A DNA stretch of 60,058 nucleotides from an uncultured Bacilli bacterium (GTDB lineage Bacteria; Bacillota_I; Bacilli_A; RF39; UBA660). Below, in pieces: positions 522 to 59,985 of this stretch. The notes below the pieces were generated by a model. It was not told the origin of the DNA and did not search any database. It saw nothing but the letters and a program-made list of their open reading frames with translations. The stretch is taken from NCBI GenBank assembly GCA_947588895.1, contig CANQBF010000001.1:1-60058 (forward strand). The letters are read 5' to 3'. Position 1 is the first letter of the stretch. Each line of letters starts with the position of its first letter. The position numbers and the translations under genes are program-made.

Positions 522-696
522 AAATTTTTGTACACTTTCTCTTGACTAATGCAAATTGACATGATTAAATTATCTTTTCAAGATAGTAAAGAATTATATT
601 AATGAGAAAAAATGTGGAAAATGAAATAATAAGAATGGTAGGTTGATAATATTAATAAAAGATACCTAAATTGATATCTTTTCTCATATTTAATAT

Positions 697-1416
697 TTAT
701 ATATTGTTATTACTTATAAATACATATCTTTCATAATTATTATAATCTTTTTCTATTTTTATCTTATCATTAGGTAAATATTTATTAACTAAATCTTTTA
801 TTAATTTTCCCTCTTTATCATCTATTTCAAATGCAATTAAATGATTAGAATTTAAATTATTATGTAATTTTTCTAATATTATTCGATAATAATATATTCC
901 ATCTTCAGGAGCAAAAATAGCATTTTGTGGTTCATATTTAGTTTTCTTATCGACTACTTTATTATATGAAACATAGGGAGGATTACTTATAATAACGTCA
1001 TATTTCTGAGTAGTATTAAATGTATTAATATCATTAATTATAAAATTTATATTAGTATTATTTAATTTAGCATTAGATTTAGCTACCTCAATAGCTTTTT
1101 TGCTAATATCTATAGCATCAATTTTACAATCAATATTCTTTTTTAAAGCAATACTTATACAACCACTACCAGTACCAATATCTAATATTTTAGGATTATT
1201 TATATGCAAATATTTTAAATATTTAATTGTTTTATCAACTAAATATTCTGTTTCAAATCTTGGAATTAAAACATTTTTATTAACATTAATAAGACAATTA
1301 TAAAATTCAACATTACCTATAATATATTGTACTGGTTCGTCATTTTGTAATCTTTTTAAACCATTTTCATATTCTTCTTTAGTTAAATATTTTCTTAATA
1401 ACTCTTCATCAGTCAT
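697..1416 (-). CDS. prmC: Release-factor glutamine N5-methyltransferase PrmC (HemK)
   Basis: 239 aa with the SAM motif ILDIGTGSGCI and the catalytic NPPY motif (SNPPYV). It lies 1 nt downstream of prfA. Confidence 0.93.
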   Translation of the reverse strand: MTDEELLRKYLTKEEYENGLKRLQNDEPVQYIIGNVEFYNCLINVNKNVLIPRFETEYLVDKTIKYLKYLHINNPKILDIGTGSGCISIALKKNIDCKIDAIDISKKAIEVAKSNAKLNNTNINFIINDINTFNTTQKYDVIISNPPYVSYNKVVDKKTKYEPQNAIFAPEDGIYYYRIILEKLHNNLNSNHLIAFEIDDKEGKLIKDLVNKYLPNDKIKIEKDYNNYERYVFISNNNI

Positions 1417-1417
1417 T

Positions 1418-2485
1418 TTATAAGCTTTCTTTATTACCTTCTAATTTTCTTCTTAAATCTTCAGTAATTAAGGCTTCAATAATTGGAGATAAATTACCAT
1501 CCATAACTCTATCTAATTCCATAATTGAAAAATTAATACGATGGTCAGTAACTCTATTTTGAGGATAGTTATAAGTTCTTATTTTTTCTGAACGGTCACC
1601 GGTACCAATTTTACTTTTTCTTTCAGCACCAATTTCTTGTTCTTGTCTTTGTTTCATTTCATCATGTAATTTTATTTTTAATAAACGCATAGCATTTTCT
1701 TTATTTTTTAATTGACTTCTTTCCGTTTGACAAGCTACTACTACTCCAGTTGGAATATGGGTTATACGAACTGCTGAATTTGAAGTATTTACTGATTGTC
1801 CACCAGCTCCACTTGAATGGTAAACATCTATTTTTAAATCACTTTCTTTAACATCAATATCAACATCTTCGACTTCCGGCATAACTAAAACCGTTGCAGT
1901 TGATGTATGAACTCGACCTTGAGTTTCAGTTTCAGGTACTCTTTGAACACGATGAGAACCACTTTCATATTTCAATTTTGAATATACATTGTCTCCTTTA
2001 ACCATATATTCAATTTGAGAATATCCCCCACTTGCACCTTCAATCGAATTTAATACTTCAATTTTCCAACCATTTTCTTCAGCATAATAAGAATACATTC
2101 TAAATAAATCACCAGCAAAAATATTGGCTTCATCTCCACCAGCAGCTCCCCTTATTTCCATAATAACATTCTTACCATCATTTTCATCTTTAGGAACTAA
2201 TAATATTTCTAATTCACTATTAATTTCTTGTAATTTTTCGGATAATGTTGATACTTCTCCTTCAGCAATTTCTTTAAATTCTGGATCATTAATTAATGAT
2301 TCAGCTTCATCTAAAGCTTTTTTTGTTGCTTTATATTCTTCATATTTATTAACAATTTCTTCTAAATCACTTTGTTCTTTTGATAACTTTCTTAATTTAT
2401 TATAATCAGTTAATACTTCTTCTTTTGTTAATTCTTCTTTTAGCTCTTCATATTTTTTTACTATATTATTTAATCTTTCAAACAT
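1418..2485 (-). CDS. prfA: Peptide chain release factor 1
   Basis: 355 aa with the GGQ motif (SGAGGQSVN) and an RF1-type region, RVQRVPETETQGRVHTS. Confidence 0.96.
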   Translation of the reverse strand: MFERLNNIVKKYEELKEELTKEEVLTDYNKLRKLSKEQSDLEEIVNKYEEYKATKKALDEAESLINDPEFKEIAEGEVSTLSEKLQEINSELEILLVPKDENDGKNVIMEIRGAAGGDEANIFAGDLFRMYSYYAEENGWKIEVLNSIEGASGGYSQIEYMVKGDNVYSKLKYESGSHRVQRVPETETQGRVHTSTATVLVMPEVEDVDIDVKESDLKIDVYHSSGAGGQSVNTSNSAVRITHIPTGVVVACQTERSQLKNKENAMRLLKIKLHDEMKQRQEQEIGAERKSKIGTGDRSEKIRTYNYPQNRVTDHRINFSIMELDRVMDGNLSPIIEALITEDLRRKLEGNKESL

Positions 2486-2555
2486 AATATCACTCTTTCG
2501 TTAAAAATTATATCATTTATATTTTATGCATGCAATTAAAACGATATATTAAAAA

Positions 2556-3203
2556 CTATTTATGTCTAGTTAATTTATAATTTCCTACGATATCATTAGT
2601 TTCATTTTCAGTTATTTGAATATCAATATCTTTCTCATTAAATGTATAAGAAATAGCATATTTAGTATCTTTTACTGTTTCCGTTAAATCATTTACATTT
2701 TCAACATCTTTATCTTCTTCTCTTTTTAATTCTAAAGTAGCTCCTTTTAATAGATTAGAAACATATTGTAAATAAAGATTATTTTTTTCGTATTTATTAT
2801 TATTAATATTACCTAAAATTGTATTAGAAATACCAATAGTTAATGATAAAAGTGTAGATATAGCTAAAATTATACTAGGAATTTTTAATGCAAAAATTGC
2901 TGATAATATAAATATACCTGTTAAATATAATGTAATATTCCAATATTTATTAGAATTACCTGCATTCTTCATTACTTTTTCATCATAAATAGTATGGTTA
3001 TAAATTAAAACTGCTAATTGATTTACTAAAATATTTATTTTGTCTCTTAAATTAAGATTTTCATCATCAAAATAACTATTTGTAATTACATCACTATATA
3101 ATTCAATAACTTTATCTAAGCTAGCATTTTTATAATCTTTATTTAATTCTTCTTCTGCTTGTTTATTAACTTTATTAAATGCATCTATTTTTTCTTGTTT
3201 CAT
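2556..3203 (-). CDS. Hypothetical 2-TM membrane protein (helical N-terminus, TM hairpin, charged C-terminus); paralog of 3215..3808
   Basis: 215 aa with two adjacent hydrophobic helices, WNITLYLTGIFILSAIFAL and IILAISTLLSLTIGISNTIL. After TM2 it shares the motif NNK-YEK..Y with the neighbouring gene. Confidence 0.65.
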   Translation of the reverse strand: MKQEKIDAFNKVNKQAEEELNKDYKNASLDKVIELYSDVITNSYFDDENLNLRDKINILVNQLAVLIYNHTIYDEKVMKNAGNSNKYWNITLYLTGIFILSAIFALKIPSIILAISTLLSLTIGISNTILGNINNNKYEKNNLYLQYVSNLLKGATLELKREEDKDVENVNDLTETVKDTKYAISYTFNEKDIDIQITENETNDIVGNYKLTRHK

Positions 3204-3214
3204 AAAATTACTCC

Positions 3215-3808
3215 CTATCTTTTGTTTCTCTTTCTGGTAAATGATTTTTCATTATCTATAAACAAATTATCTTTTACTAAATCATAATCAAAATCATCAT
3301 CAATAATATTTTCTTCAATATAATCTTTATCTTTTACTTCATCATTTATTAATAATAATTCTTTTTCTAAAGAACAACTTTTAAAAAAGATATTATAATA
3401 TATAGCTTTATCTTTTTCATATATTGATTTATTATTATAGATAATTTCTAAAGATTTAGCTATTATACTAAAGCTAGTATTAATAACTGTTATAAAAGCA
3501 AAAATATTTGCTATATAAACACTATTAAATAATTTAGCTACTACTAATGTTAAAATTAAACTTATAAAAGCTGCAACCATTTTATAAAAGGCATAATAAC
3601 TATTACTTCTACTTTTAACATCATATTCTTTATGTTTATCAGTACATATTTCAGCTTGTATAGATGTATAATCTATTTTTTCATCGAGATTTTTTATTTT
3701 AAATATTTCTTTATCAATAAATACTTTATCATAAACTTGTTTTAAATCATTTAATCTTAAGTTTTTATTAATTACTTCATTATTTAAATTATTTAAACTT
3801 TTTTTCAT
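3215..3808 (-). CDS. Hypothetical 2-TM membrane protein; paralog of 2556..3203
   Basis: 197 aa with the same architecture: TM1 YKMVAAFISLILTLVVAKL, TM2 IANIFAFITVINTSFSII, then YNNKSIYEKDKAIYY. The ATG is preceded by AAAGGGA, which is embedded in a TCCCT..AGGGA hairpin. Confidence 0.65.
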   Translation of the reverse strand: MKKSLNNLNNEVINKNLRLNDLKQVYDKVFIDKEIFKIKNLDEKIDYTSIQAEICTDKHKEYDVKSRSNSYYAFYKMVAAFISLILTLVVAKLFNSVYIANIFAFITVINTSFSIIAKSLEIIYNNKSIYEKDKAIYYNIFFKSCSLEKELLLINDEVKDKDYIEENIIDDDFDYDLVKDNLFIDNEKSFTRKRNKR

Positions 3809-3865
3809 AAAAAAATCCCTTTCTTTTAGGGAATATTTTAATACTATTTATTATTACTTGTCAAT

Positions 3866-4741
3866 TTATTTTTCATTAGGTATAACTTTAATATTAATAT
3901 GTTTTACTAATTTAAATTTTTTCTCTATTTTATCATGTATTTTAACTCTTTCTTTATCTACTTTTTTAAGTGGTGTATTACCATCCATTGATATAATTAA
4001 ATCAATATATATTTTACTACCAAACATTCTTGTTTTTAAATCAATTACTTGAATATTTTTATTACTATCAATTATTGTTTTTAGTATTTCATCTTCCGTT
4101 TCTTTATCACATGCTGTATCAAGCATACCACTTAGAGCACTAACAAATATATCAACTGCTGTTTTAATTATTAAAATACATATTAATAAACATACTATTG
4201 AATCTAAAGCAGTAAATCCAAAATGAGCTCCTAAAATACCAATTAGAGAACCAACGGAAGATATGGCATCACTTCGATGGTGCCAAGCATCTCCCTTAAG
4301 TGCTGGTGAATTAAGTTTTTTAGCAATTCTTATAGTATATTGAAACATAACTTCTTTAACTATAATCGAAATTATCGCACCGATTAATCCAATTAAACTA
4401 GGAGTAACAATATCTTTAGTATGAATTATAGCTAATATGCCTTCATATCCAATATAAAGACCAGTCATTAAAAGAATAAATGCTAAAATAATAGCAAATG
4501 CACTTTCAATTCGTTCATGACCATAAGGATGATTTTCATCAGCTTCTTTACTAGATATAATAAAACCAAATATTACTATAATTGTTGTAAATACATCACT
4601 TAATGAATGAATAGCGTCAGATACTAAAGCTTTAGAATGCCCAATTAACCCTAAAATTAATTTAATTATAAATAATCCAAGATTAACTATAATTGTTATT
4701 ATACTAGTTTTTATGGCTATACTTTTAAATAATTTTTTCAT
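3866..4741 (-). CDS. Cation diffusion facilitator (CDF) family divalent-metal efflux transporter
   Basis: 291 aa with about 6 TM helices. CDF signatures HSLSDV (TM2) and HHRSDA (TM5) are present, plus a C-terminal cytoplasmic domain. Confidence 0.88.
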   Translation of the reverse strand: MKKLFKSIAIKTSIITIIVNLGLFIIKLILGLIGHSKALVSDAIHSLSDVFTTIIVIFGFIISSKEADENHPYGHERIESAFAIILAFILLMTGLYIGYEGILAIIHTKDIVTPSLIGLIGAIISIIVKEVMFQYTIRIAKKLNSPALKGDAWHHRSDAISSVGSLIGILGAHFGFTALDSIVCLLICILIIKTAVDIFVSALSGMLDTACDKETEDEILKTIIDSNKNIQVIDLKTRMFGSKIYIDLIISMDGNTPLKKVDKERVKIHDKIEKKFKLVKHINIKVIPNEK

Positions 4742-7680: not shown

Positions 7681-9219
7681 CTACTCTTCTTCTTCGCAAT
7701 CTTCTTTTTTTATAATTATTGTATATTTTAATTCTTTTGTGTCATCTTCTTCTGTAAATATTGTTGAATAATTGTATTCTCTTAATTCTTTCTTTAATTT
7801 ATCAAATAATTCAAATGCTTTATCCATATCATAATTTTTTTCTTCATTGTTTTTTTCAGTTTTATCATTTATTTCTTTTTCTTCTTCATCATCATTTGAT
7901 TCTTCTGGTATTTCTTCATTTTCGGTAATAGTCGTTTCTATTTTTTCATCTTCATGAGAATTATCATCCTCAACTTTTTCAATTAATCCTAAGTTAGCTA
8001 AAGCTTCTTCAACTGACATCTCACCAGAGTTAGAACTATTATCATTATTTATTGGCTCTACACTTGGTATTACATTATTTATAATTTCATCTGGTGATGG
8101 AGAACTTAATCCTACTTCAGGAATTACTGGGCTAATATCAGGTACAGCAACAGGTTCAGCAATTACTGGTGGTTTTTCCGGTATATAATTTAACATTTCA
8201 ATCGAATCATTAAAACCAGTAGCTTTTTTCTTTCTTTCTACTTTCATATTAGCTTGTTCATCTTCTAAGAAATTGAAAAATTTATTAGGAATTGGTTTTT
8301 CTTCAATACCTAAATCTATTGTATTTGAATTATTTATAGGTTCTATATTAGTTGGAGATTCAACATTGTTATTTACTACATCTATATTAACTGGTGGTTC
8401 AACTAAATTATTGTTTATTACATCTAAATTTGTTGGTTGTTCTACCACATTATTATTAACAGTATCTAAATTAGTAATAGTTGGTGGTTCAAGTGACATA
8501 CCAACTAAATCAGGAATACTATTTGTGGGAACATTATTAACATTATTATTTTCCATAACATTATTTAATTCAACTGGTGGTTCCATAACATCATTAACTT
8601 TTGGTTCTTCTTTTTTAGTTAAACCTTTTAATCTATTATCTAATTCTTTAACAGTAATTCTTTCATCTAAAATAACTTTTAACCAATTATTTTGTTCTTC
8701 TTCCGTTTTTAATTGAAGCAAACTACGAGCATGTCTTTCGGAAATTTTACCTTCCATTAAAGCATCTTTTACGCTTTCTGATAAAGATAATAATCTTAAT
8801 TTGTTAGCTACAGCTGATTGACTTAATCCCATTTTTTTAGCTAATTCTTCTTGAGTCATACCTTTACTTAATAAGGTTTCATAAGAACGAGCTTCTTCAA
8901 TCGGATTTAAATCTTTTCTTTGAATATTTTCCACAATAGCTACTTCAGCACTTTGCTTATCATCCATTTCAGTTATTATTGCAGGTACGGAAGTAAGACC
9001 GGCCATTTTCGCAGCTTTATATCTTCTTTCGCCAGCAATTATTTCGTACTTTTCTCCTATCTTTCTAACGACTAAAGGCTGAATAATACCATGTTCTTTA
9101 ATTGATAAAGATAATTCATTTAATGCACTTTCATCAAACTTCAAACGAGGTTGAAAACGATTAGGAATAACATCTTCAATTGGTAAATTTAAAACTTGCG
9201 AATTTGTATTCACACTCAT
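7681..9219 (-). CDS. noc: ParB-family protein of the Noc (nucleoid occlusion) type, with a long internal low-complexity repeat insertion and an acidic region
   Basis: 512 aa with the ParB N-domain (IPNRFQPR, GIIQPLVVRK, IIAGERRYKAAK). The HTH region QSAVANKLRLLSLSESVKDALMEGKISERHARSL resembles my recollection of B. subtilis Noc (QSTIANKLRLLKLP..ITERHARAL), not Spo0J (RPHIANHLRLLTLP..LSMGHGRTL). The gene lies directly downstream of rsmG, the position noc occupies in Bacillus. An in-frame stop 4 codons upstream of the ATG rules out an N-terminal extension. Confidence 0.8.
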   Translation of the reverse strand: MSVNTNSQVLNLPIEDVIPNRFQPRLKFDESALNELSLSIKEHGIIQPLVVRKIGEKYEIIAGERRYKAAKMAGLTSVPAIITEMDDKQSAEVAIVENIQRKDLNPIEEARSYETLLSKGMTQEELAKKMGLSQSAVANKLRLLSLSESVKDALMEGKISERHARSLLQLKTEEEQNNWLKVILDERITVKELDNRLKGLTKKEEPKVNDVMEPPVELNNVMENNNVNNVPTNSIPDLVGMSLEPPTITNLDTVNNNVVEQPTNLDVINNNLVEPPVNIDVVNNNVESPTNIEPINNSNTIDLGIEEKPIPNKFFNFLEDEQANMKVERKKKATGFNDSIEMLNYIPEKPPVIAEPVAVPDISPVIPEVGLSSPSPDEIINNVIPSVEPINNDNSSNSGEMSVEEALANLGLIEKVEDDNSHEDEKIETTITENEEIPEESNDDEEEKEINDKTEKNNEEKNYDMDKAFELFDKLKKELREYNYSTIFTEEDDTKELKYTIIIKKEDCEEEE

Positions 9220-17074: not shown

Positions 17075-18439
17075 ATGGAAACGCACGAATTTTTCAAACA
17101 ATTTTTAACATTAATTAGTGAAAAAGTAAGTTCGGGCTCTTATTCGGTTTGGTTTAGTAATTTAAAAATATTACAAATAACTGATAAAGAAATTATTATT
17201 CAAGTTCCACTTCAAGCTCACAAAACAATGTTAAAACAACAATATATGGATATTATAGATGATGTTACTATTTCACTTTTAGGTAAAGAATATGAATATA
17301 TATTTTTAACTGAAGATGAAGCGAATGATAGTGATATACTTCATAACAAAAAAAATGAAGAAACAAATATAACTAAAGAAAAAGAACAAGAATGGGAAAC
17401 AAACTTAGATCCTTCAATGAATTTTGATAATTTTATTATTGGAGAATCTAATAGGTTAGCTTTTGTTGCAGCGATGGATGTTGCTCAATCTCCATGTACA
17501 ATTAATAATCCCTTATTTATATATGGAAGAAGTGGCATTGGTAAAACCCATTTAATGTATGCAATAGGTAATTATATTCATGAACATTCTGATAAAAAGG
17601 TTTTATATACAACTAGTAATGATTTTAGAGATGATTATGTTGAAATTTCGAAAAAAGAAAAAGGTAAAGAAGTATTAGAATACGCTAATAATTTTAAAAA
17701 TAAATATCGAAATGTTGATGTACTTATAATTGATGATATTCAGTTTTTAGTAGGAAATGAGGGAACACAACAAGAATTTTTCCATACTTTTGAAGCATTA
17801 CATAAAGCTAATAAACAAATAATTATATCAAGTGATAGAAGTCCTGATGATTTAAAGAAAATCGAAGATAGACTTAGAAGTAGATTTACAATGGGCCTAC
17901 CTGTTGATATTTATCCACCTGATTTCACACTTAGATGTGATATCATAAAGCAACATTTAGAAAATACTAGTATTAAAAATAAAGTTAATAAAGATGTTAT
18001 TGAATATATTGCTAATGCTTGTCCAAATGATATAAGACATATTATTGGTACAATAAGAAGATTACTAGCTTATACAGCAATGATGCGACCTCAGGTAATT
18101 AATTTAGATTTTGCAGTTGAAGCTTTAAAAGACTATATAACTGTTAATATTTATCAAGAAAATACAATATCGCATATTCAAAAAGTAGTTGCTGATTTTT
18201 TCAAGATAACAGTTGAAGATTTAAAAAGTAAAAAGAGAAGTAATAATATTGCTTGGCCAAGACATATAGCAATGTATTTATGTCGAGCTGAAACGGAGGA
18301 AAATCTAGCTAAAATCGGCTTTGAATTTGGTGGTAGAGACCATTCAACTGTCGTTGCAAGTTGTGATAAAATCAAAAGTGAGTTAATAACTAATGAAACT
18401 TTAAATGATACAATTAAAGAAATAAAAGCTAAGTTATAA
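17075..18439 (+). CDS. dnaA: Chromosomal replication initiator protein DnaA
   Basis: 454 aa with Walker A (GRSGIGKTHL), Walker B (LIIDDIQFL) and a C-terminal DNA-binding domain (GGRDHSTV). Confidence 0.97.
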   Translation: METHEFFKQFLTLISEKVSSGSYSVWFSNLKILQITDKEIIIQVPLQAHKTMLKQQYMDIIDDVTISLLGKEYEYIFLTEDEANDSDILHNKKNEETNITKEKEQEWETNLDPSMNFDNFIIGESNRLAFVAAMDVAQSPCTINNPLFIYGRSGIGKTHLMYAIGNYIHEHSDKKVLYTTSNDFRDDYVEISKKEKGKEVLEYANNFKNKYRNVDVLIIDDIQFLVGNEGTQQEFFHTFEALHKANKQIIISSDRSPDDLKKIEDRLRSRFTMGLPVDIYPPDFTLRCDIIKQHLENTSIKNKVNKDVIEYIANACPNDIRHIIGTIRRLLAYTAMMRPQVINLDFAVEALKDYITVNIYQENTISHIQKVVADFFKITVEDLKSKKRSNNIAWPRHIAMYLCRAETEENLAKIGFEFGGRDHSTVVASCDKIKSELITNETLNDTIKEIKAKL

Positions 18440-19708: not shown

Positions 19709-19782
19709 AATTTTATAAGATAATTAGACAAAATTTTTAAGTTTAGTGTGCTATAGTAGACCATAAATTTTTGGAGGAAAGT

Positions 19783-20235
19783 ATGGAAAATTATATAATA
19801 AATGAAAATACTGTAGCAATTTTAAAAAAATATAATGAAATTATTATTTATAATGTTGATAAAGAAGAAGTTTTCAACACGAAAATTAAAAAAATTATTA
19901 ATACAAGTTGTTTAGTATATGGAAGTAATCTTTTAGGAAGAAAAGAATATGCTAAAAAATATTTAAATATTAAATATAAAGTACCAATTATAATATCTGA
20001 GAATAAAAATATTATTTTGTTACAAATAAATAATTTTCGGGATGAAGAATGTTTATGTATTGTGGGAAATAAAATATTAAATTATCAAGAAAAAGATAAT
20101 AAATTAATAATAAAATGTATAAATAATCAAGAATTTTCCACAAATATATCTAAGTATAGTTTTGAAAAAATACTTTTAAATTATTTAAAATTAAATAATT
20201 ATATTAATTATCAAAATAGTTTGAAATTTCTTTAA
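19783..20235 (+). CDS. ComK-family protein (competence transcription factor-like)
   Basis: By eye it matches ComK hallmarks: NTVAIL.., IINTSCLVYGSNLLGRK (compare IVDRSCRFFGSSYAGRK), KVPIIISENKNIILL, and C-x-I after a short gap. I set the start at the ATG at 19783, 5 nt after GGAGG; the ORF track uses the TTG at 19771. Confidence 0.65.
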   Translation: MENYIINENTVAILKKYNEIIIYNVDKEEVFNTKIKKIINTSCLVYGSNLLGRKEYAKKYLNIKYKVPIIISENKNIILLQINNFRDEECLCIVGNKILNYQEKDNKLIIKCINNQEFSTNISKYSFEKILLNYLKLNNYINYQNSLKFL

Positions 20236-23399: not shown

Positions 23400-25904
23400 A
23401 TGGATCATAGTAGAGATAGATTAGAAGAAAATAACATTGTAAATGAAATAAAATCATCATTTATTGAATATTCAATGAGTGTTATTGTTTCAAGAGCATT
23501 ACCTGATTTAAGAGATGGTTTAAAGCCTGTTCATCGTAGAATTTTATGGTCAATGTATGAATCTGGTTATACTCCTGATAAACCTCATAAAAAGTCAGCT
23601 AGAATAGTTGGAGACGTTATGGGTAAATACCATCCACATGGTGATTCAAGTATATATGAAGCAATGGTTAGAATGGCACAAGATTTCAATTATCGATATA
23701 CGCTTGTTGATGGACATGGTAACTTTGGTAATATAGCTGGTTCTGGAGCTGCAGCAATGCGTTATACCGAATCAAGATTATCAAAAATGTCACTAGAATT
23801 ATTAAGAGATATTGGTAAAGATACAGTTAATTTTGTACCTAACTTTGATGAATCTGAAAGAGAACCAGAAATATTGCCATCAAGATTTCCAAATATTTTA
23901 GTAAATGGTACAATGGGTATTGCTGTAGGTATGGCAACAAATATTCCACCACATAATTTAGGTGAAGTTATTGATGGATGTGTGGCCTATATTGATAATG
24001 AAAATATTGATACTGAAGGATTAATGCAATATATTAAAGGACCTGATTTTCCAACTGGTGGTATTATTTTAGGTAATAGTGGAATAAAAAAAGCATATGA
24101 AACTGGAAGAGGTACTATTACTATTAGAAGTAAAGCTACTATTGAAGAAAAAAATGGTAAAAATTATATTATTGTTGATGAAGTTCCATATGGTGTTAAT
24201 GTATCAGAATTAAAGGCAAAAGTTGCTGAACTAGTACATAATAAAATAATTGATGGGATAGCAGATTATCATACTGATTTAAAAGATGGTGTAAAAATTA
24301 CAATAACATTAAAAAATAATGCCAATCCTCAAGTTGTACTTAATAATTTATATAAACATACACAATTTCAAACAACATATGGTATTATTTTCTTAATGAT
24401 TGATAATCAAGTACCTAGAACATTAGGATTAAGAGATATAATAGCTAAATATATAAATTATCAAGAAGAAGTTATTATAAGAAGAACTAAGTATGAATTA
24501 GATAAAGCAGAAAAAAGAGTTCATATTTTAGAGGGGTATAAAATAGCTTTAGATAATCTTGATGATTTTATTAAAATTATTAGAGAATCAGAAACTGATA
24601 TAATTGCTAAAGAAAAATTGATTAGTAAATATAGTTTAACTGAAATTCAAGCTGATAGTATCTTAGAATTAAAATTACGTCGTTTAACAGGCTTAGAAAG
24701 AGCTAAGATTGAAGAAGAATTAAAAGAATTATTAGCTAAGATAGAAGAATATAAAGCTATATTAGCATCAAGAGAGAAAATATTAGAAATTATCAAGAAT
24801 GAACTTCTAGAAATTAAAGAAAAATATGGAGATGACCGTCGTACCAAGATTGATATGACTGCAATTGAATATATTGAAGATGAATCTTTAATTCCAGAAG
24901 AAGATATAATGGTAATGCTTACAAATAAAGGATATATTAAGAGAACAAAAAATGATACTTTCAAAGTTCAAAATCGTGGCGGAGTTGGAATCAAGGGATT
25001 AACAACTAATGATGAAGACTATGTTGAACAATTAATTAATTTATCAACTCACGATTATATAATGTTCTTTACAAATAAAGGAAAAGTATATCGTTTAAAA
25101 GGATATGAAATACCAGAATTTAGTAGGCAATCTAAGGGTCTTCCAGTAATTAATTTATTACAAATTGAAAAAGACGAAAAAATTAATGCTGTAATTAAAG
25201 TTTCTAATGATGATGAAGCAAAATATTTAATGTTTGCGACAAAACAAGGTATTGTTAAGAAAACTGACATTAAAGAATTTGAAAATATAAGAACATCAGG
25301 TAAATTATGTATTAATTTAAAAGATGATGATGAATTAATTGCTGTTAAGAAGACTAATGGAAATAATATAATCTTACTTGGAAGCAGTAATGGTAGAATG
25401 GTTAAATTTGATGAAAATGAAATTAGAGCTATGGGTAGAACTGCAACGGGAGTAAGAGGAATTAATCTTGGCGATGGAACATGTATTTGTTGTGAAGTTG
25501 CAAAAGAAGAAGATATGTTGTTACTAGTTACTGAAAAAGGTTATGGTAAGAGAACTAAGATAAGTTATTTTAGACAAACTAGACGTGGAAGTAAAGGTGT
25601 TTTGGCACTTAATGTCACTGAAAAAAATGGTAATTTAATAGCTTCTAAGTTAGTGGAAGAAGATAAAGATGCTGTTTTAATGACTAATGTTGGTATAACA
25701 ATTAAATTACCAGTAGAACAAATTTCAATTTTAGGTCGTGTTACTCAAGGTTTAAGACTTATATCATTACGCGATAATCAAACAGTAGCTACAGTAAGTA
25801 TTGTAGATAAAGTAAATGATGAAGAAAATAGTGAAAAGCCTGATAATACTATTGAAAATAACAATTTAGAAAGCAATTTAGTTGAAAATAATGAAGAAAG
25901 TTGA
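23400..25904 (+). CDS. gyrA: DNA gyrase subunit A
   Basis: 834 aa with the catalytic region AAMRYTE, a QRDR-like [13 protein letters not shown] and C-terminal beta-pinwheel repeats. Confidence 0.97.
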
Positions 25905-25926
25905 TAAAAATAATCAACTTTTTTTA
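25898..25926 (+). terminator. Intrinsic terminator after gyrA
   Basis: The hairpin AAGTTGAT-AAAAATA-ATCAACTT is followed by TTTTT. The gyrA stop codon lies in the stem. Confidence 0.7.
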
Positions 25927-25932
25927 TGAATT

Positions 25933-25950
25933 TTATTTCCCGGGAAATAA
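25933..25950. promoter_or_regulatory. Perfect Noc-binding-site (NBS) palindrome
   Basis: TTATTTCCCGGGAAATAA is an 18-bp perfect palindrome. Its core, ATTTCCCGGGAAAT (25935..25948), equals the B. subtilis NBS consensus as I recall it. Confidence 0.7.
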
Positions 25951-26023
25951 TTGGTTTACATAATATTATAATAAACACAAATATATGTTCGTGTAGTATT
26001 TTAAAGTTATTTAAAATTATGTT

Positions 26024-26049
26024 TTAAATGTTTCACGTGAAACATTTAA
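26024..26049. promoter_or_regulatory. parS site 1 (perfect consensus)
   Basis: The core TGTTTCACGTGAAACA lies at 26029..26044 inside a 26-bp perfect palindrome. Confidence 0.85.
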
Positions 26050-26208
26050 CATTTAATAGATTAAGCAAATGTAAAAATTTGTTATATATAGTCTATTTAA
26101 AATTCAAACATGATTATTGATTGCATAATAAATATTTAAAAATTCAATTAATATTAAATGATTTTGAAACGTTTTAAAATTTTTATAAATATTTTTCAAA
26201 AAAATTTC

Positions 26209-26228
26209 AATGTTTCACGTGAAACATT
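26209..26228. promoter_or_regulatory. parS site 2 (perfect consensus)
   Basis: The core TGTTTCACGTGAAACA lies at 26211..26226 inside a 20-bp perfect palindrome. Confidence 0.85.
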
Positions 26229-26382
26229 ATTTAAGTTCATTATTTTAATGTCCTAAATATTAACAATTAATTATAAATAAATAATATATCTTATAAATTA
26301 TATAATAAATTGTAATTATTCAATGTTATATGAATAGCTTTGATACTTTATACATTTAATTGTTTTTAAAAAATAAAACAAC

Positions 26383-26402
26383 TATGTTTCACGTGAAACA
26401 TA
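26383..26402. promoter_or_regulatory. parS site 3 (perfect consensus)
   Basis: The core TGTTTCACGTGAAACA lies at 26385..26400 inside a 20-bp perfect palindrome. Confidence 0.85.
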
Positions 26403-26410
26403 TAAGAAAT

Positions 26411-26440
26411 TTGACAAAGAAAAAAGTAATATGATAACAT
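26411..26440 (+). promoter_or_regulatory. Sigma-A-type promoter for the SRP RNA
   Basis: TTGACA (26411..26416), an 18-nt spacer, then the extended -10 TGATAACAT (-10 hexamer at 26435..26440). The predicted TSS is near 26447. Confidence 0.5.
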
Positions 26441-26446
26441 TAATAT

Positions 26447-26527
26447 GCACAACAAATATATTGTAACCTGGTCAGAGTTGGAAGACAGCAGCCACATCAA
26501 TCCCTATTTGTGTGTGCTTTTTTTTAT
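26447..26527 (+). ncRNA. ffs: Small (4.5S-like) signal recognition particle RNA
   Basis: It contains the conserved SRP domain IV: CCUGGUCAG-AGUU-GGAA-GAC-AGCAGCC (compare E. coli GGUCAGGUCCGGAAGGAAGCAGCC). The closing helix pairs GCACAACAAAUA with UAUUUGUGUGUGC and is followed by a U-run. It sits next to tadA-dnaX, where scr is found in Bacillus. Confidence 0.75.
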
Positions 26528-26539
26528 AGGAGAAAAAAG

Positions 26540-35795: not shown

Positions 35796-35851
35796 GAATA
35801 ATTAATTTTAAATAAAATAGTGAAATGTTATACTAAAGTTAGAGGTGTAGT

Positions 35852-36247
35852 ATGAAAAGTTTATTTGTGATATCAAAATTTATAATTTCAGTTATTCAAT
35901 TTATAAATTCTGTGTTAATGATTATGGCAATGGGTTCACTTTCAGTATTAGCATTGTCTTTTGGTTCAAAAAATGCAGTAAATATGACTACCACTGCTTA
36001 TATTTATATAATTTTTTGTATTTTATTTTCAATATTATTTATATTGAATATTGTATTGTTAGTGAAGTATTTTAAAGGAAAAAATATTTTAAAATTAAAT
36101 AATATTACTAGCATTATAAGTATAATAATTAGTTTGATATTAATACTTATAGAAAAAGAAGCTAATAATATAATAGATATTGCATTTGTTTCAATAATAA
36201 TTAATACAATTTTGTTATTTATATTCAATAATAAGAAAGAAGTTTAA
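35852..36247 (+). CDS. Hypothetical 4-TM membrane protein (tandem paralog 1)
   Basis: 131 aa. It shares LLVKYFK..LKLNNITSIISII..IIINTI.LFIFN with the next gene, and the two have identical 5-prime leaders (TAAAGTTAGAGGTGTAGTATGAAAA). Confidence 0.7.
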   Translation: MKSLFVISKFIISVIQFINSVLMIMAMGSLSVLALSFGSKNAVNMTTTAYIYIIFCILFSILFILNIVLLVKYFKGKNILKLNNITSIISIIISLILILIEKEANNIIDIAFVSIIINTILLFIFNNKKEV

Positions 36248-36270
36248 AATATTAAAGTTAGAGGTGTAGT

Positions 36271-36639
36271 ATGAAAAATATAGTTATGATTTCAAAAATG
36301 TTAATAACATTGATTCAATTTGTCTGTACTTTAGCAATGTTTATATTTGTAGGATTTTTTGAGTTATTTTTAAGCAAATTTACATATTCTTCTAAATTAA
36401 TAATCTTTATTATATCATTTTTAATATTACTTATATTGGATATTGTATTGTTAGTTAAATATTTTAAGAAAAAAGAATTTTTAAAATTGAATAATATTAC
36501 TAGTATTATAAGTATAATAGTTAGTTTACTATTTATGTTTATATTAGGTTTTGAAAATGATTTAACTCTTTTTGCTGTTATTGCAATAATAATTAATACA
36601 ATTTCGTTATTTATATTTAATATTAAGAATAAATCTTAA
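36271..36639 (+). CDS. Hypothetical 4-TM membrane protein (tandem paralog 2)
   Basis: 122 aa; see 35852..36247. Confidence 0.7.
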   Translation: MKNIVMISKMLITLIQFVCTLAMFIFVGFFELFLSKFTYSSKLIIFIISFLILLILDIVLLVKYFKKKEFLKLNNITSIISIIVSLLFMFILGFENDLTLFAVIAIIINTISLFIFNIKNKS

Positions 36640-36675: not shown

Positions 36676-37182
36676 ATGATAAAAAGTGGAATTACTAGAA
36701 GAATTGACGAATTAGGAAGAATTGTAGTTCCCAAAGAAATAAGATATAACCTAGGTATAAGAGATGGAGAACCATTAGAAATATATACTAGTGATAATTC
36801 AATTATAATTAAGAAATTTTCCCAAGTTGAAAATATAAAAAATATTAGTTCAGTCTTATGTGAAATATTTAGTCAAATATGTGGAGTAGATGTCATAATA
36901 ACAGATAGAGAAAAAGTTATAGCTACTGATTCAAATAATTTAAATTTAATAGATTTTAAACTTAGTGATAAATTGAAAAATTTAATTGATAATAGAGAAA
37001 ATTTTATAAGTGATAAAGAAGATAATTTGTTTGATAAAATGGGTTACTTTGTTATGTTACCTATTATAACATCAATAGATTCAAGTGGTTTAGTAATTGT
37101 GTATAATAAAAATAGTAGTAATGAAAATTTAAAATATGCAAAATTAATTCAAAAATTATTAATTCAAAAACTAGATATATAA
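36676..37182 (+). CDS. spoVT: Stage V sporulation protein T (AbrB-type N-terminal domain + GAF-like domain)
   Basis: 168 aa with the SpoVT/AbrB swapped-hairpin motif GITRRIDELGRIVVPKEIR. The length and its position after mfd match SpoVT rather than AbrB. Confidence 0.88.
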   Translation: MIKSGITRRIDELGRIVVPKEIRYNLGIRDGEPLEIYTSDNSIIIKKFSQVENIKNISSVLCEIFSQICGVDVIITDREKVIATDSNNLNLIDFKLSDKLKNLIDNRENFISDKEDNLFDKMGYFVMLPIITSIDSSGLVIVYNKNSSNENLKYAKLIQKLLIQKLDI

Positions 37183-38534: not shown

Positions 38535-38745
38535 ACTTAATTAACGGGGAATAAGTATTATAATTAGGAAATATTATAGAGAGTTAATGGTTGGTGGAAA
38601 TTAATATAGGAACTAATTAGGTATGGACTTAGGAGTTAAAGCGCATGATGAGCGTTATGCATTAAAGTGTATGATTAATTCATAAATAAAGGTGGTACCA
38701 CGGGTTATCTCGTCCTTTACCTTATTTATGAATTTTTATTTTTAG
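38535..38745 (+). promoter_or_regulatory. T-box riboswitch leader, probable Met (AUG) specifier
   Basis: The T-box sequence AAAGGTGGTACCACGGG lies at about 38687..38704. A terminator (TTCATAAATAAAGGT / ACCTTATTTATGAA followed by TTTTTATTTTT) competes with it. Stem I folds by hand as follows: base helix TAAGT/ACTTA; a specifier loop with AUUA on the 5-prime side and GGUAUGG on the 3-prime side, with AUG at 38623..38625; a 7-bp helix TAATTAG/CTAATTA; a GAGAG bulge (AG bay); and a distal loop GGUUGGUGGAA. Confidence 0.8.
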
Positions 38746-38753
38746 GAGGCAAG

Positions 38754-39374
38754 ATGTTAAAAGCTATTATATTTGATTTAGATAATACTTTAATTGATTG
38801 GGATTTAATTTATCTTAAACAATTAGAATTAGTATTAAAAGATTATAATTTTTCTAAAGAAACTATATTAAAAATAGATGATATATTAGGTATGCATACA
38901 ACGATTGATGAAACCCTTAATATAAATAAGCTTGTAGATTATATTAATGCTAAGTTAAATTTAAATTTGCCAGCTGAATTTCTAATTCAATTAAGTATAG
39001 CACAACAAGATTGCTATAAAGATAATCCTGAAGTGAATGATGTAATAAAATATTTAGCTTCTAAATATGATTTATATGTTTTAAGTAATTGGTTTACTGA
39101 AACGCAAAAGGGAAGATTAAAAAATATGGGAATATTAAAGTATTTTAAAGAAGTTATTGGAGGAGACCAAAATTATTATAAACCGGATAAAAGAGCTTAT
39201 CAGTTTATCTTAGAAAAATATAAACCTAATGAATGCCTTTTTATTGGTGATGATATAGAAAAAGATATTATACCAGCTTTAGAATTGGGGATGCAGGCTA
39301 TATGGAAAAATAATGAAAAATCTAATAATTATCAAACCATAAATGAAATAAAAGAATTAAAAAGAATATTATAA
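38754..39374 (+). CDS. HAD-superfamily hydrolase
   Basis: 206 aa with motif I (IIFDLDNTLIDW), motif II (SN) and motif IV (GDDIEKD). Confidence 0.85.
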   Translation: MLKAIIFDLDNTLIDWDLIYLKQLELVLKDYNFSKETILKIDDILGMHTTIDETLNINKLVDYINAKLNLNLPAEFLIQLSIAQQDCYKDNPEVNDVIKYLASKYDLYVLSNWFTETQKGRLKNMGILKYFKEVIGGDQNYYKPDKRAYQFILEKYKPNECLFIGDDIEKDIIPALELGMQAIWKNNEKSNNYQTINEIKELKRIL

Positions 39375-40949: not shown

Positions 40950-41712
40950 TTATTTTACGGATAGTCATTGTCATATATATAGTGAATATTATGAAAATAT
41001 TGATGATATTATTAAATTAGCTATGCAAAATAATGTTAAAAGATTTATTAATAATGGTACTTCTAGAAATTCAAATATCGAAGTATTAAGTTTAATTAAT
41101 AAATATCCCAATATGTATGGAGCGATTGGAATTCATCCCGAAAATGTTAATGATTATACGATGGAAGATATTAATTTTATTGAAGATAATTTAAAAAATA
41201 AAAAAATAGTTGCTATTGGAGAGATTGGTCTTGATTATCACTATACAAAAGATGATAAAGATAAACAAATTAAATTATTTGAATTACAATTATCTTTAGC
41301 AGAAAAATATAATATACCAGTAATTGTTCATAGTAGGGATGCAACATTAGATACAATTAATACTTTGAAAAAATATCATGTAAAAGGCATAATTCATTCT
41401 TTTTCTGGTAGTATTGAAACAGCAAGAGAATATATAAAAATGGGTTATTTACTGGGAATTAATGGAGTTATAACATTTAAAAATGCTAATTTAAAAGATG
41501 TTTATAAAGATATTGATTTAAGTAATATTGTACTTGAAACGGATGCTCCATATTTAACTCCTGAACCTTTTAGGGGTAAACAAAATAATTCAAGCCACAT
41601 CTTAGATATAGCAACATTTGTTGCCACTTTAAAAGATATTAGTTTAGATGAGTTAGCAAAGATAACAAATAATAATTTAGAAAGAGTATTTAATTTTAAT
41701 GTTGATAACTAA
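40930..41712 (+). CDS. tatD: TatD-family metal-dependent DNase/hydrolase (YabD)
   Basis: 260 aa with DSHCH, EIGLDYH, VHSR and ETDAPYL motifs. It follows metG as in Bacillus. Confidence 0.92.
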   Translation: MKKSMLNYFTDSHCHIYSEYYENIDDIIKLAMQNNVKRFINNGTSRNSNIEVLSLINKYPNMYGAIGIHPENVNDYTMEDINFIEDNLKNKKIVAIGEIGLDYHYTKDDKDKQIKLFELQLSLAEKYNIPVIVHSRDATLDTINTLKKYHVKGIIHSFSGSIETAREYIKMGYLLGINGVITFKNANLKDVYKDIDLSNIVLETDAPYLTPEPFRGKQNNSSHILDIATFVATLKDISLDELAKITNNNLERVFNFNVDN

Positions 41713-59616: not shown

Positions 59617-59703
59617 GAAACGATAGGAAATAGATGTAAAATTAAGAAGTTTTTAAGAATTTTTGTGTCGAAAAATTAGAACGTTTGTCGAAAGACTTGA
59701 AAA

Positions 59704-59985
59704 ATGGAAAAAAGAATATTAATATCGAGTCTTCGAAAGGAGACAATTAAGATAAAAAATAATTATTTAAAATACGATAAAATATTCAAAAGTATAATAG
59801 TAAATAGATATGATACGAGATACATGAATAAATTATTAAGTGATATTTTAGAAAGAAAAGTAGAAGTTAAAGAATATTTGGATTTAGAATTAAAAGTAAA
59901 AAATAAAAATGAAAGAGCCAAGAGATTAGATGTAATATTAAAGACGAAAGATGATGACATAATAATAATGGAACTAAATAGTTGA
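59704..59985 (+). pseudogene. PD-(D/E)XK nuclease-family transposase-like (Rpn/YhgA-like) N-terminal fragment
   Basis: 93 aa. The pattern ...YMNKLLSDILE...VKEYLDLELKVKNKNERAKRLDVILKTKDDDIIIMELNS matches the N-terminal nuclease core pattern (D...E.K). It ends at a TGA inside the 77-bp repeat, whereas full-length relatives are about 300 aa. Confidence 0.6.

Follow-up and report, generated by a model that had tools for sequence, protein, structure and literature searches.

The spacer between gyrA and the gene for the small signal recognition particle (SRP) RNA holds one Noc-binding site (NBS) and three parS sites, all of them perfect palindromes, in a 60,058-bp contig of a metagenome-assembled genome from an uncultured Bacilli bacterium (CANQBF010000001.1; guanine-cytosine (GC) content 23.9%, standard genetic code; hereafter, the window). 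We interpret this spacer as a composite, dedicated and transcription-free centromere near the replication origin, oriC, at which two paralogous DNA clamps dependent on cytidine triphosphate (CTP), ParB and a Noc-family protein, would be loaded, and we assign this interpretation a probability of about 0.8. It is supported directly by the identity of the sites, their clustering and conservation, their division into two classes, the presence of a cognate NBS-type protein and the covariation of that protein with NBS. The initial annotation of this DNA had reached a similar view from the window, and our analysis supports it as essentially right and extends it to a large clade. The elements of the cassette, its borders and the nearby origin are as follows.

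17075-18439, plus strand: dnaA, adjoined by the GC-skew switch at 16-18 kb that marks oriC
25891-25927, plus strand: hairpin at the 3' end of gyrA, a probable intrinsic terminator with a 15-bp stem and a T-run in its 3' arm
25908-26438 (531 bp), no strand: non-coding spacer between gyrA, whose stop codon ends at 25907, and the SRP RNA gene, containing the whole cassette
25934-25949, no strand: NBS, TATTTCCCGGGAAATA, perfect over 16 bp and inside an 18-bp palindrome (25933-25950), identical to the NBS of Jalal 2020 (PMC7383237)
26029-26044, no strand: parS 1, perfect TGTTTCACGTGAAACA, by motif match
26211-26226, no strand: parS 2, perfect TGTTTCACGTGAAACA, by motif match
26385-26400, no strand: parS 3, perfect TGTTTCACGTGAAACA, by motif match, whose end lies 10 bp ahead of the SRP RNA promoter's -35 hexamer
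26411-26440, plus strand: promoter-like site of the SRP RNA (TTGACA, 18-bp spacer, TG-n-TAACAT)
26439-26528, plus strand: small SRP RNA gene (RF00169; Rfam, 52 bits), the right border of the cassette

All four palindromes named in the initial annotation were recovered, with centre-to-centre distances of 95 bp between the NBS and parS 1 and then of 182 and 174 bp. The spacer is also non-coding, as had been stated, its largest open reading frame (ORF) encoding at most 44 amino acids, and it lies about 9 kb from the origin, since the skew changes sign beside dnaA. The three parS conform to the 16-bp palindrome consensus TGTTNCACGTGAAACA. Chance alone would yield 0.01 parS matches in the window at up to two mismatches, and no further copy is present in the 60,058 bases at up to three; the only other NBS-like match in the contig at this tolerance, at 41446, is a poor one. 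The flanks of the parS had been described as unrelated and are indeed alike only at the level of AT-rich composition (69-75%). Tandem duplication as the source of the three units was rejected on this ground.

Relatives were obtained by a DnaA-anchored scan with one genome per species, which yielded 80 syntenic loci (L001-L080; 21 kb per genome). They belong to uncultured bacteria of the gut that carry the labels Bacilli, Tenericutes or 'Mycoplasma sp. CAG:472' and have DnaA identities of 55-83%. Both the labels and the 24% GC raised the suspicion of an alternative genetic code (TGA = Trp), which was discarded, as conserved genes given proper start codons contain no in-frame TGA. Sites were counted in the 60 species-level sources that have both gyrA and tadA (59 relatives and the window), whose spacers total 53.6 kb and whose remaining sequence amounts to 1.19 Mb, with parS scored at up to one mismatch. 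parS is present in the homologous spacer of 59 of the 60 species, and 253 of 254 parS fall in these gyrA-SRP RNA/tadA spacers, with a single copy outside. NBS is likewise concentrated there (71 of 96 copies, with 25 outside), at a density about 60-fold that of the remaining sequence. Spacers vary from 257 to 1919 bp and arrays from 2 to 14 sites; both site types occur in 31 genomes, parS only in 28 and NBS only in one. Where both occur, NBS may precede the parS array, follow it, lie on both sides or be interleaved, and the SRP RNA gene ends the spacer in all seven relatives examined. When 12-bp palindromes were counted blind across all spacers, only three classes recurred: the parS core (205 copies at 53 loci), the NBS core (60 copies at 32 loci) and TTCCACGTGGAA (23 copies at 9 loci), which is parS with C at its known degenerate position 5.

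A metagenome collection was additionally scanned for NBS followed by parS 5-35 bp further on, which returned at least 120 stretches (L081-L200). About 118 of the 120 matches listed share the order gyrA-cassette-tadA-dnaX-ybaB-recR in DNA of 19-31% GC, and the GyrA identity of the listed contigs to that of the window is 44-79%. Conservation of the spacer cassette among relatives, which the initial annotation had made a test of its proposal, is thus observed both in the species-level genomes and in the metagenome contigs. One contig that breaks the gyrA-tadA pattern (L168; GC 0.49) carries a noc-soj-spo0J locus at 630-4110, in which a noc gene with residues Q-K-Q-R at the specificity positions discussed below is followed by a 950-bp spacer that contains a single perfect NBS along with four parS-type sites, and then by soj and by spo0J with the R..G signature. 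This noc is frameshifted in the assembly and has a short N-terminus (MRFRREKPAGK...). Mixed parS/NBS clusters thus occur as well at a locus that visibly encodes the two paralogues next to each other. Another contig (L178; GC 0.38), with the cassette beside a gyrA fragment and unrelated genes, was set aside as probably rearranged or chimeric.

The sites had also been called evenly spaced. The near-equal distances of 182 and 174 bp are real in the window but are not kept in relatives, where parS-parS distances run from 36 to 553 bp (median 132) and no helical phasing was found for any of the site spacings; we therefore attach no general meaning to this regularity. Two relatives carry strictly tandem parS, with 14 copies every 40 bp in L061 (18992-19529) and 8 copies every 64 bp in L036 (19431-19898), resembling the sopC-type repeat centromeres of plasmids. 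Tandem arrays of this kind are what would be expected if the palindromes were a generic dispersed or tandem repeat unlinked to ParB proteins, such as a repetitive extragenic palindrome, a miniature inverted-repeat transposable element or an array like those of clustered regularly interspaced short palindromic repeats (CRISPR). However, the sites are confined to this spacer, the flanks in the window are unrelated, no Rfam or CRISPR-like feature was found, and the 16-mers, which do not recur elsewhere in the 60 kb, are identical to two experimentally defined consensus sites. We consider the chance of a generic repeat, which would have refuted the interpretation in the initial annotation, negligible.

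Given that the window contains a single NBS, the CCCGGG-centred palindrome might be incidental, belonging to the terminator region or representing a restriction-type palindrome, with parS as the only functional element. The site begins just 6 bp past the gyrA terminator hairpin, and when the 14-mer is searched at up to two mismatches, shuffled sequence also yields one or more matches in 17 of 100 cases. From base composition at 24% GC, however, we estimate the probability of a perfect 16-bp match at about 2e-10 per position. Furthermore, of the 12 nearest relatives whose spacer is defined, 11 have a perfect NBS that starts approximately 10-60 bp from the end of gyrA (in L002 the distance is 115 bp). 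Together with the enrichment of NBS in spacers and a cognate NBS-type protein encoded 17 kb away, this makes an incidental origin very improbable.

Across the spacers, 305 sites fit a joint degenerate pattern, comprising 245 pure parS, 59 pure NBS and one hybrid, and the sharpness of these two classes implies two readers. In the species set, 10 of 50 heterotypic neighbours are separated by a gap of at most 24 bp (minimum 7 bp), compared with 3 of 181 parS-parS neighbours (minimum 20 bp; Fisher p = 1.7e-5, phylogeny not corrected for). This excess of close heterotypic pairs suggests that the juxtaposition of NBS and parS is under selection. Among the listed metagenome matches, the gaps between NBS and parS cluster at 6-14 and 16-23 bp, and a gap of 15 bp does not occur. 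NBS were also seen in other arrangements. Solitary perfect copies recur at fixed intergenic spots around oriC, namely in the dnaN-comK gap at about 12.6 kb (L003, L005, L007, L014 and L080), in the mnmE-jag gap at about 7.4 kb (L058, L060, L063, L069, L072 and L074, and also L052 and L078, which have no defined gyrA-tadA spacer) and in the mnmG/mnmE region, while an overlapping one-and-a-half NBS, ATTTCCCGGGAAATATTTCCCGGAATTT, occurs in five loci.

The candidate reader of NBS is encoded on the same contig.

7681-9219, minus strand: NBS-type ParB paralogue of the Noc family, 512 amino acids, assigned by profile matches; directly after rsmG

This is the sole ParB-family gene on the contig, and its position after rsmG reproduces the rsmG-noc synteny of Bacillus. 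The protein matches ParB_N and HTH_ParB and scores 272.9 bits on the NCBIfam Noc model (TIGR04285), compared with 184 on generic ParB. As its match is limited to positions 1-201 of the 255 in the model, it stays under the TIGR04285 cut-off of 315. Among solved structures in the PDB, Geobacillus Noc (7ng0/7nfu) matches best at 197 bits, followed by Spo0J of Thermus (182) and by Noc (173) and Spo0J (171.5) of B. subtilis. Jalal 2020 (PMC7383237) identified four positions (173/179/184/201) that switch specificity, with RTAG in ParB and QKKR in Noc; in the deep mutational scan of that study, parS-specific variants were invariably R173, and NBS-specific variants mostly had Q173, R201 and K/R at 179/184. 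The window protein has Q-K-S-R at these positions. In a sample of 269 Noc-like family members from two databases, Q-K-x-R is found in 262 and R..G in none. These NBS-type residues support the assignment of the protein as the putative cognate reader of NBS, in line with the identification of the first palindrome as an NBS in the initial annotation.

The residues of the CTP pocket are retained. Within the GERR and ENxQR motifs, G63, E64, R65, R66, E97, N98, Q100 and R101 show no variation among 69 aligned orthologues, and the protein is predicted to be a CTP clamp. It has neither the N-terminal amphipathic helix alpha1 nor alpha2, the membrane-targeting elements of Noc, which are described as peculiar to that family (PMC8429893). 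Only 17-18 residues stand ahead of PNRFQPR in the window protein, compared with a family median of 16 and with 39 in B. subtilis Noc; residue 7 of the window protein aligns to residue 26 of Geobacillus Noc, and the upstream reading frame leaves no room for a longer N-terminus in any of 48 orthologues. In the AlphaFold model, a confidently folded part (residues 5-205, a CTP-binding N-domain and a helix-turn-helix) is followed by a disordered stretch (206-460) and a small C-terminal domain (461-505). The linker of about 255 residues differs greatly in length within the family, total protein length in relatives ranging from 227 to 982 amino acids. Two short motifs in this linker are conserved family-wide: IPNKFFNFLEDExANM, in which F314, F315 and N316 hardly vary, and EIEMLDF. 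An amphipathic helix at the linker motif was considered and is not assigned with confidence, the predicted local distance difference test (pLDDT) score being about 59 there. Since the membrane-targeting helix that defines Noc function is missing, a role in nucleoid occlusion cannot be assumed; we file the protein, from its sequence, as a probable NBS-specific Noc-family ParB paralogue rather than as a nucleoid occlusion protein.

The link between this protein and NBS is reinforced by covariation. Six genomes (L046-L051, including 'Mycoplasma sp. CAG:472', FR899409) have V, L or E at position 173 in place of Q. None of the six has an NBS in its 21-kb locus, and perfect parS arrays are intact in all of them; among genomes with Q173, 28 of 41 have at least one NBS (Fisher p = 0.0025). 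No replacement palindrome common to L046-L051 was found beyond parS that might serve the altered Noc-like protein.

A single protein reading both NBS and parS would account for the fact that only one ParB-family gene is seen in about 200 loci, and dual-specificity variants do exist, as 82 of 362 NBS binders in the scan of Jalal 2020 (PMC7383237) show. Against such a protein, all 262 typical family members have Q173, which sets them apart from the invariably R173 parS-specific variants of that scan; a promiscuous reader would not keep the classes as sharp as one hybrid in 305 sites; and the subclade without Q173 has lost NBS and retained perfect parS. Only a small part of each genome is visible, moreover, so that a second gene could lie elsewhere. 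We regard a single dual-specificity protein as distinctly improbable. Because 245 canonical parS are kept in one spacer and the only visible paralogue carries Q173, we infer instead that the clade encodes a canonical parS-specific ParB elsewhere in the genome.

The search for this ParB and for its partner covered all ORFs of the contig, the 80 dnaA-centred loci and 120 cassette-centred loci with phmmer and hmmsearch. The 10 kb beyond noc in L201-L204 contain no ParA or ParB and instead hold PBP1A, prfA, prmC, spoIIR, murA, rpmE and spoIID. A search of 50% representatives added 150 further Noc-like family members and no R173 protein, and a designed AT-rich consensus Spo0J query returned only sequences from Bacillaceae and Clostridia (Halalkalibacter, Thermoanaerobacter, B. 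pumilus and others), none of which could be linked to the clade. An exact-match look-up with the window protein itself identified no contig that encodes it. The ORF at 59701-59985 gave a weak match (E = 0.03), which was judged to be noise.

Several observations weigh against a two-clamp centromere. No parS-type ParB (R173 with a small residue at 201) was detected on the contig or in the roughly 200 related loci, L168 excepted, and no ParA/Soj homologue was detected in the same set, again L168 excepted, with a threshold of E < 1e-3 for the contig and the 80 loci; a combination of Noc and ParB without ParA is known from S. aureus (PMC5540599). The specificity of the Noc-family protein is a prediction based on four residues, which had been mapped on a ParB scaffold from Caulobacter. 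As the six genomes behind the covariation form a single subclade, they represent effectively one or two events. In the window itself the NBS lies 79 bp from the nearest parS and is not part of a tight pair. NBS is not an obligatory part of the cassette, given the 28 of 60 genomes with parS alone, and as it occurs about once per 48 kb outside the cassette (21 kb per relative and 60 kb in the window), its protein probably also has dispersed sites, like ordinary Noc.

The borders of the cassette bear on how it might function. The hairpin at the 3' end of gyrA folds at -13.9 kcal/mol (z = -6.35; 0 of 200 shuffles fold as well) and probably serves as an intrinsic terminator, so that transcripts of gyrA would not run into the cassette. 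On the other side, the promoter-like site of the SRP RNA matches 10 of 12 hexamer positions and has an extended -10, by consensus match only. With this terminator on one side and the promoter 10 bp past the last parS on the other, the cassette would form a transcription-free landing pad. The same proximity could mean that the cassette is mainly a transcriptional control element or insulator for the SRP RNA and gyrA, with segregation secondary: the last site ends approximately 40-55 bp ahead of the SRP RNA 5' end in the window and in five of seven relatives (about 90 bp in L047 and 133 bp in L026), and ParB is reported to repress parS-adjacent promoters in Pseudomonas (PMC5521831). Arrays of 2-14 sites in spacers of 257-1919 bp are, however, far beyond what a promoter operator needs, the promoter-nearest site is parS in some genomes and NBS in others, and canonical parS and an origin-proximal position are hallmarks of a centromere. 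We therefore consider a mainly regulatory role improbable.

For the composite centromere, the following mechanism is proposed. parS-specific ParB/Spo0J CTP clamps would load at the three parS, spread from the cassette and, by analogy with Bacillus, load SMC onto the origin region. Noc-type clamps formed by the 7681-9219 protein would load at the NBS on the gyrA-proximal edge. Both clamps would thus load within one stretch of about 470 bp, and in relatives the sites are often 7-24 bp apart, flanking or interleaved. Loading side by side implies that the two nucleoprotein domains must abut, and the abutting domains might either act as mutual boundaries on spreading or merge into one mixed origin complex. 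Sliding clamps of the two kinds would then be expected to collide, as the initial annotation had proposed. The output of the Noc-family protein may be the recruitment of a partner to the origin or centromere, which appears likelier than membrane-based nucleoid occlusion because the protein, while devoid of a membrane helix, carries an extended disordered linker in which short motifs are conserved.

Comparison with known systems indicates which features of the cassette are new. The parS sites share with the ParB/Spo0J-parS system of B. subtilis and other species the same 16-bp palindrome, including the tolerated T/C at position 5, as well as an origin-proximal position and multiple sites, a pattern that fits the loading of CTP clamps and recruitment of SMC. 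B. subtilis has approximately ten parS over hundreds of kilobases, often inside genes and often imperfect. The cassette sites, in contrast, are perfect or near-perfect, and all detectable ones stand in one non-coding spacer, at 2-14 per genome; the gene for a parS-type ParB is not beside noc/rsmG, and no ParA is seen near the origin. Clustered or tandem centromeres are represented by the parS clusters of Caulobacter and Corynebacterium and by sopC of plasmid F. A cluster of four parS near oriC has also been described for Pseudomonas. These centromeres resemble the cassette in having several ParB sites in a short stretch near the origin, and the 40-bp array of L061 resembles the sopC-type repeats; however, they serve one ParB, whereas the cassette combines sites for two paralogous specificities, and unlike sites are often paired at a distance of 7-24 bp. 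The initial annotation had considered a spacer that stacks three perfect parS next to a perfect NBS unusual. As parS clusters near oriC are ordinary in many bacteria outside the Bacillus model, three parS in one spacer are unremarkable in themselves; what is new is that NBS and parS cluster together systematically.

The Noc-NBS system of B. subtilis and S. aureus shares the NBS 16-mer, the Q/K/R residues, the gene position after rsmG and the CTP motifs, and Noc is the best-matching solved structure. In S. aureus, NBS are found at 41 loci over about 1.4 Mb (PMC5540599), and those of B. subtilis are 'scattered around the chromosome' (PMC8429893). Here, in contrast, NBS pile up within the parS centromere, and the protein lacks alpha1/alpha2, falls under the Noc cut-off and carries the disordered insert of about 255 residues. 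The Firmicute origin anchors RicO, RacA and RocS are also site-specific DNA binders with sites near oriC and may offer a functional analogy (bioRxiv 10.64898/2026.03.06.710092). They belong to an unrelated family (MerR-like helix-turn-helix, coiled coil and C-terminal amphipathic helix) with a different motif, ricS, and no membrane element is demonstrable in the 7681-9219 protein. We found no description of a mixed NBS/parS cassette or of a helix-less Noc in the literature searched, an absence that is not proof of novelty.

The wider contig has the classical gene order of a Firmicute origin region: one strand carries rnpA-yidC-jag-mnmE-mnmG-rsmG-'noc', and the opposite strand dnaA-dnaN-comK-like-recF-gyrB-gyrA. 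The ORF at 19768-20235, between dnaN and recF, belongs to the ComK family (Pfam, 72.6 bits) in the window and likewise in relatives, at a position where Bacillus has yaaA. SpoVT is encoded at 36676-37182, PBP1A is also present in the lineage, and relatives L201 and L203 have SpoIIR, SpoIID and PBP1A. With SpoVT in the window and these proteins in relatives, the lineage, although labelled 'Mycoplasma' and 'Tenericutes', has the appearance of a Firmicute that is walled and possibly forms spores. Elsewhere, a T-box leader (38538-38720; Rfam, 100 bits) lies upstream of the ORF at 38679-39374, which is followed by metG. Two adjacent ORFs (35843-36247 and 36262-36639) have similar hydrophobic N-termini, MKSLFVISKFIISVIQF and MKNIVMISKMLITLIQF, and are apparently a tandem duplicate of a small membrane protein. 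The short ORF 59701-59985 at the contig end reads as a truncated nuclease-like gene, as judged from sequence alone, and may mark a repeat that broke the assembly.

A more specific hypothesis can be put forward tentatively. The Noc-family protein might be a second, obligate centromere component rather than a nucleoid-occlusion factor; NBS placed 7-24 bp from or around parS might set the boundaries of ParB spreading or allow the two proteins to co-assemble; the linker motifs IPNKFFNFLEDE and EIEMLDF might recruit a partner that replaces the missing ParA; and the membrane-less form might be ancestral to the Bacillus-type Noc with its membrane helix and dispersed sites. We consider this combination possible but doubtful. 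ParB and Noc are the textbook paralogous CTP-switch DNA clamps, which have diverged in both site and job, and their sites have so far been described as separate, with a small number of parS by the origin and NBS dispersed along the chromosome. Here both site types are packed into one spacer across a clade of gut Firmicutes. The resulting compact, sequence-defined dual-label cassette is relevant to ParB/Noc-based locus-tagging tools. For the biology of this family, the cassette offers a natural system for studying how two side-by-side sliding clamps interact, as well as a candidate intermediate on the evolutionary path from ParB to Noc.

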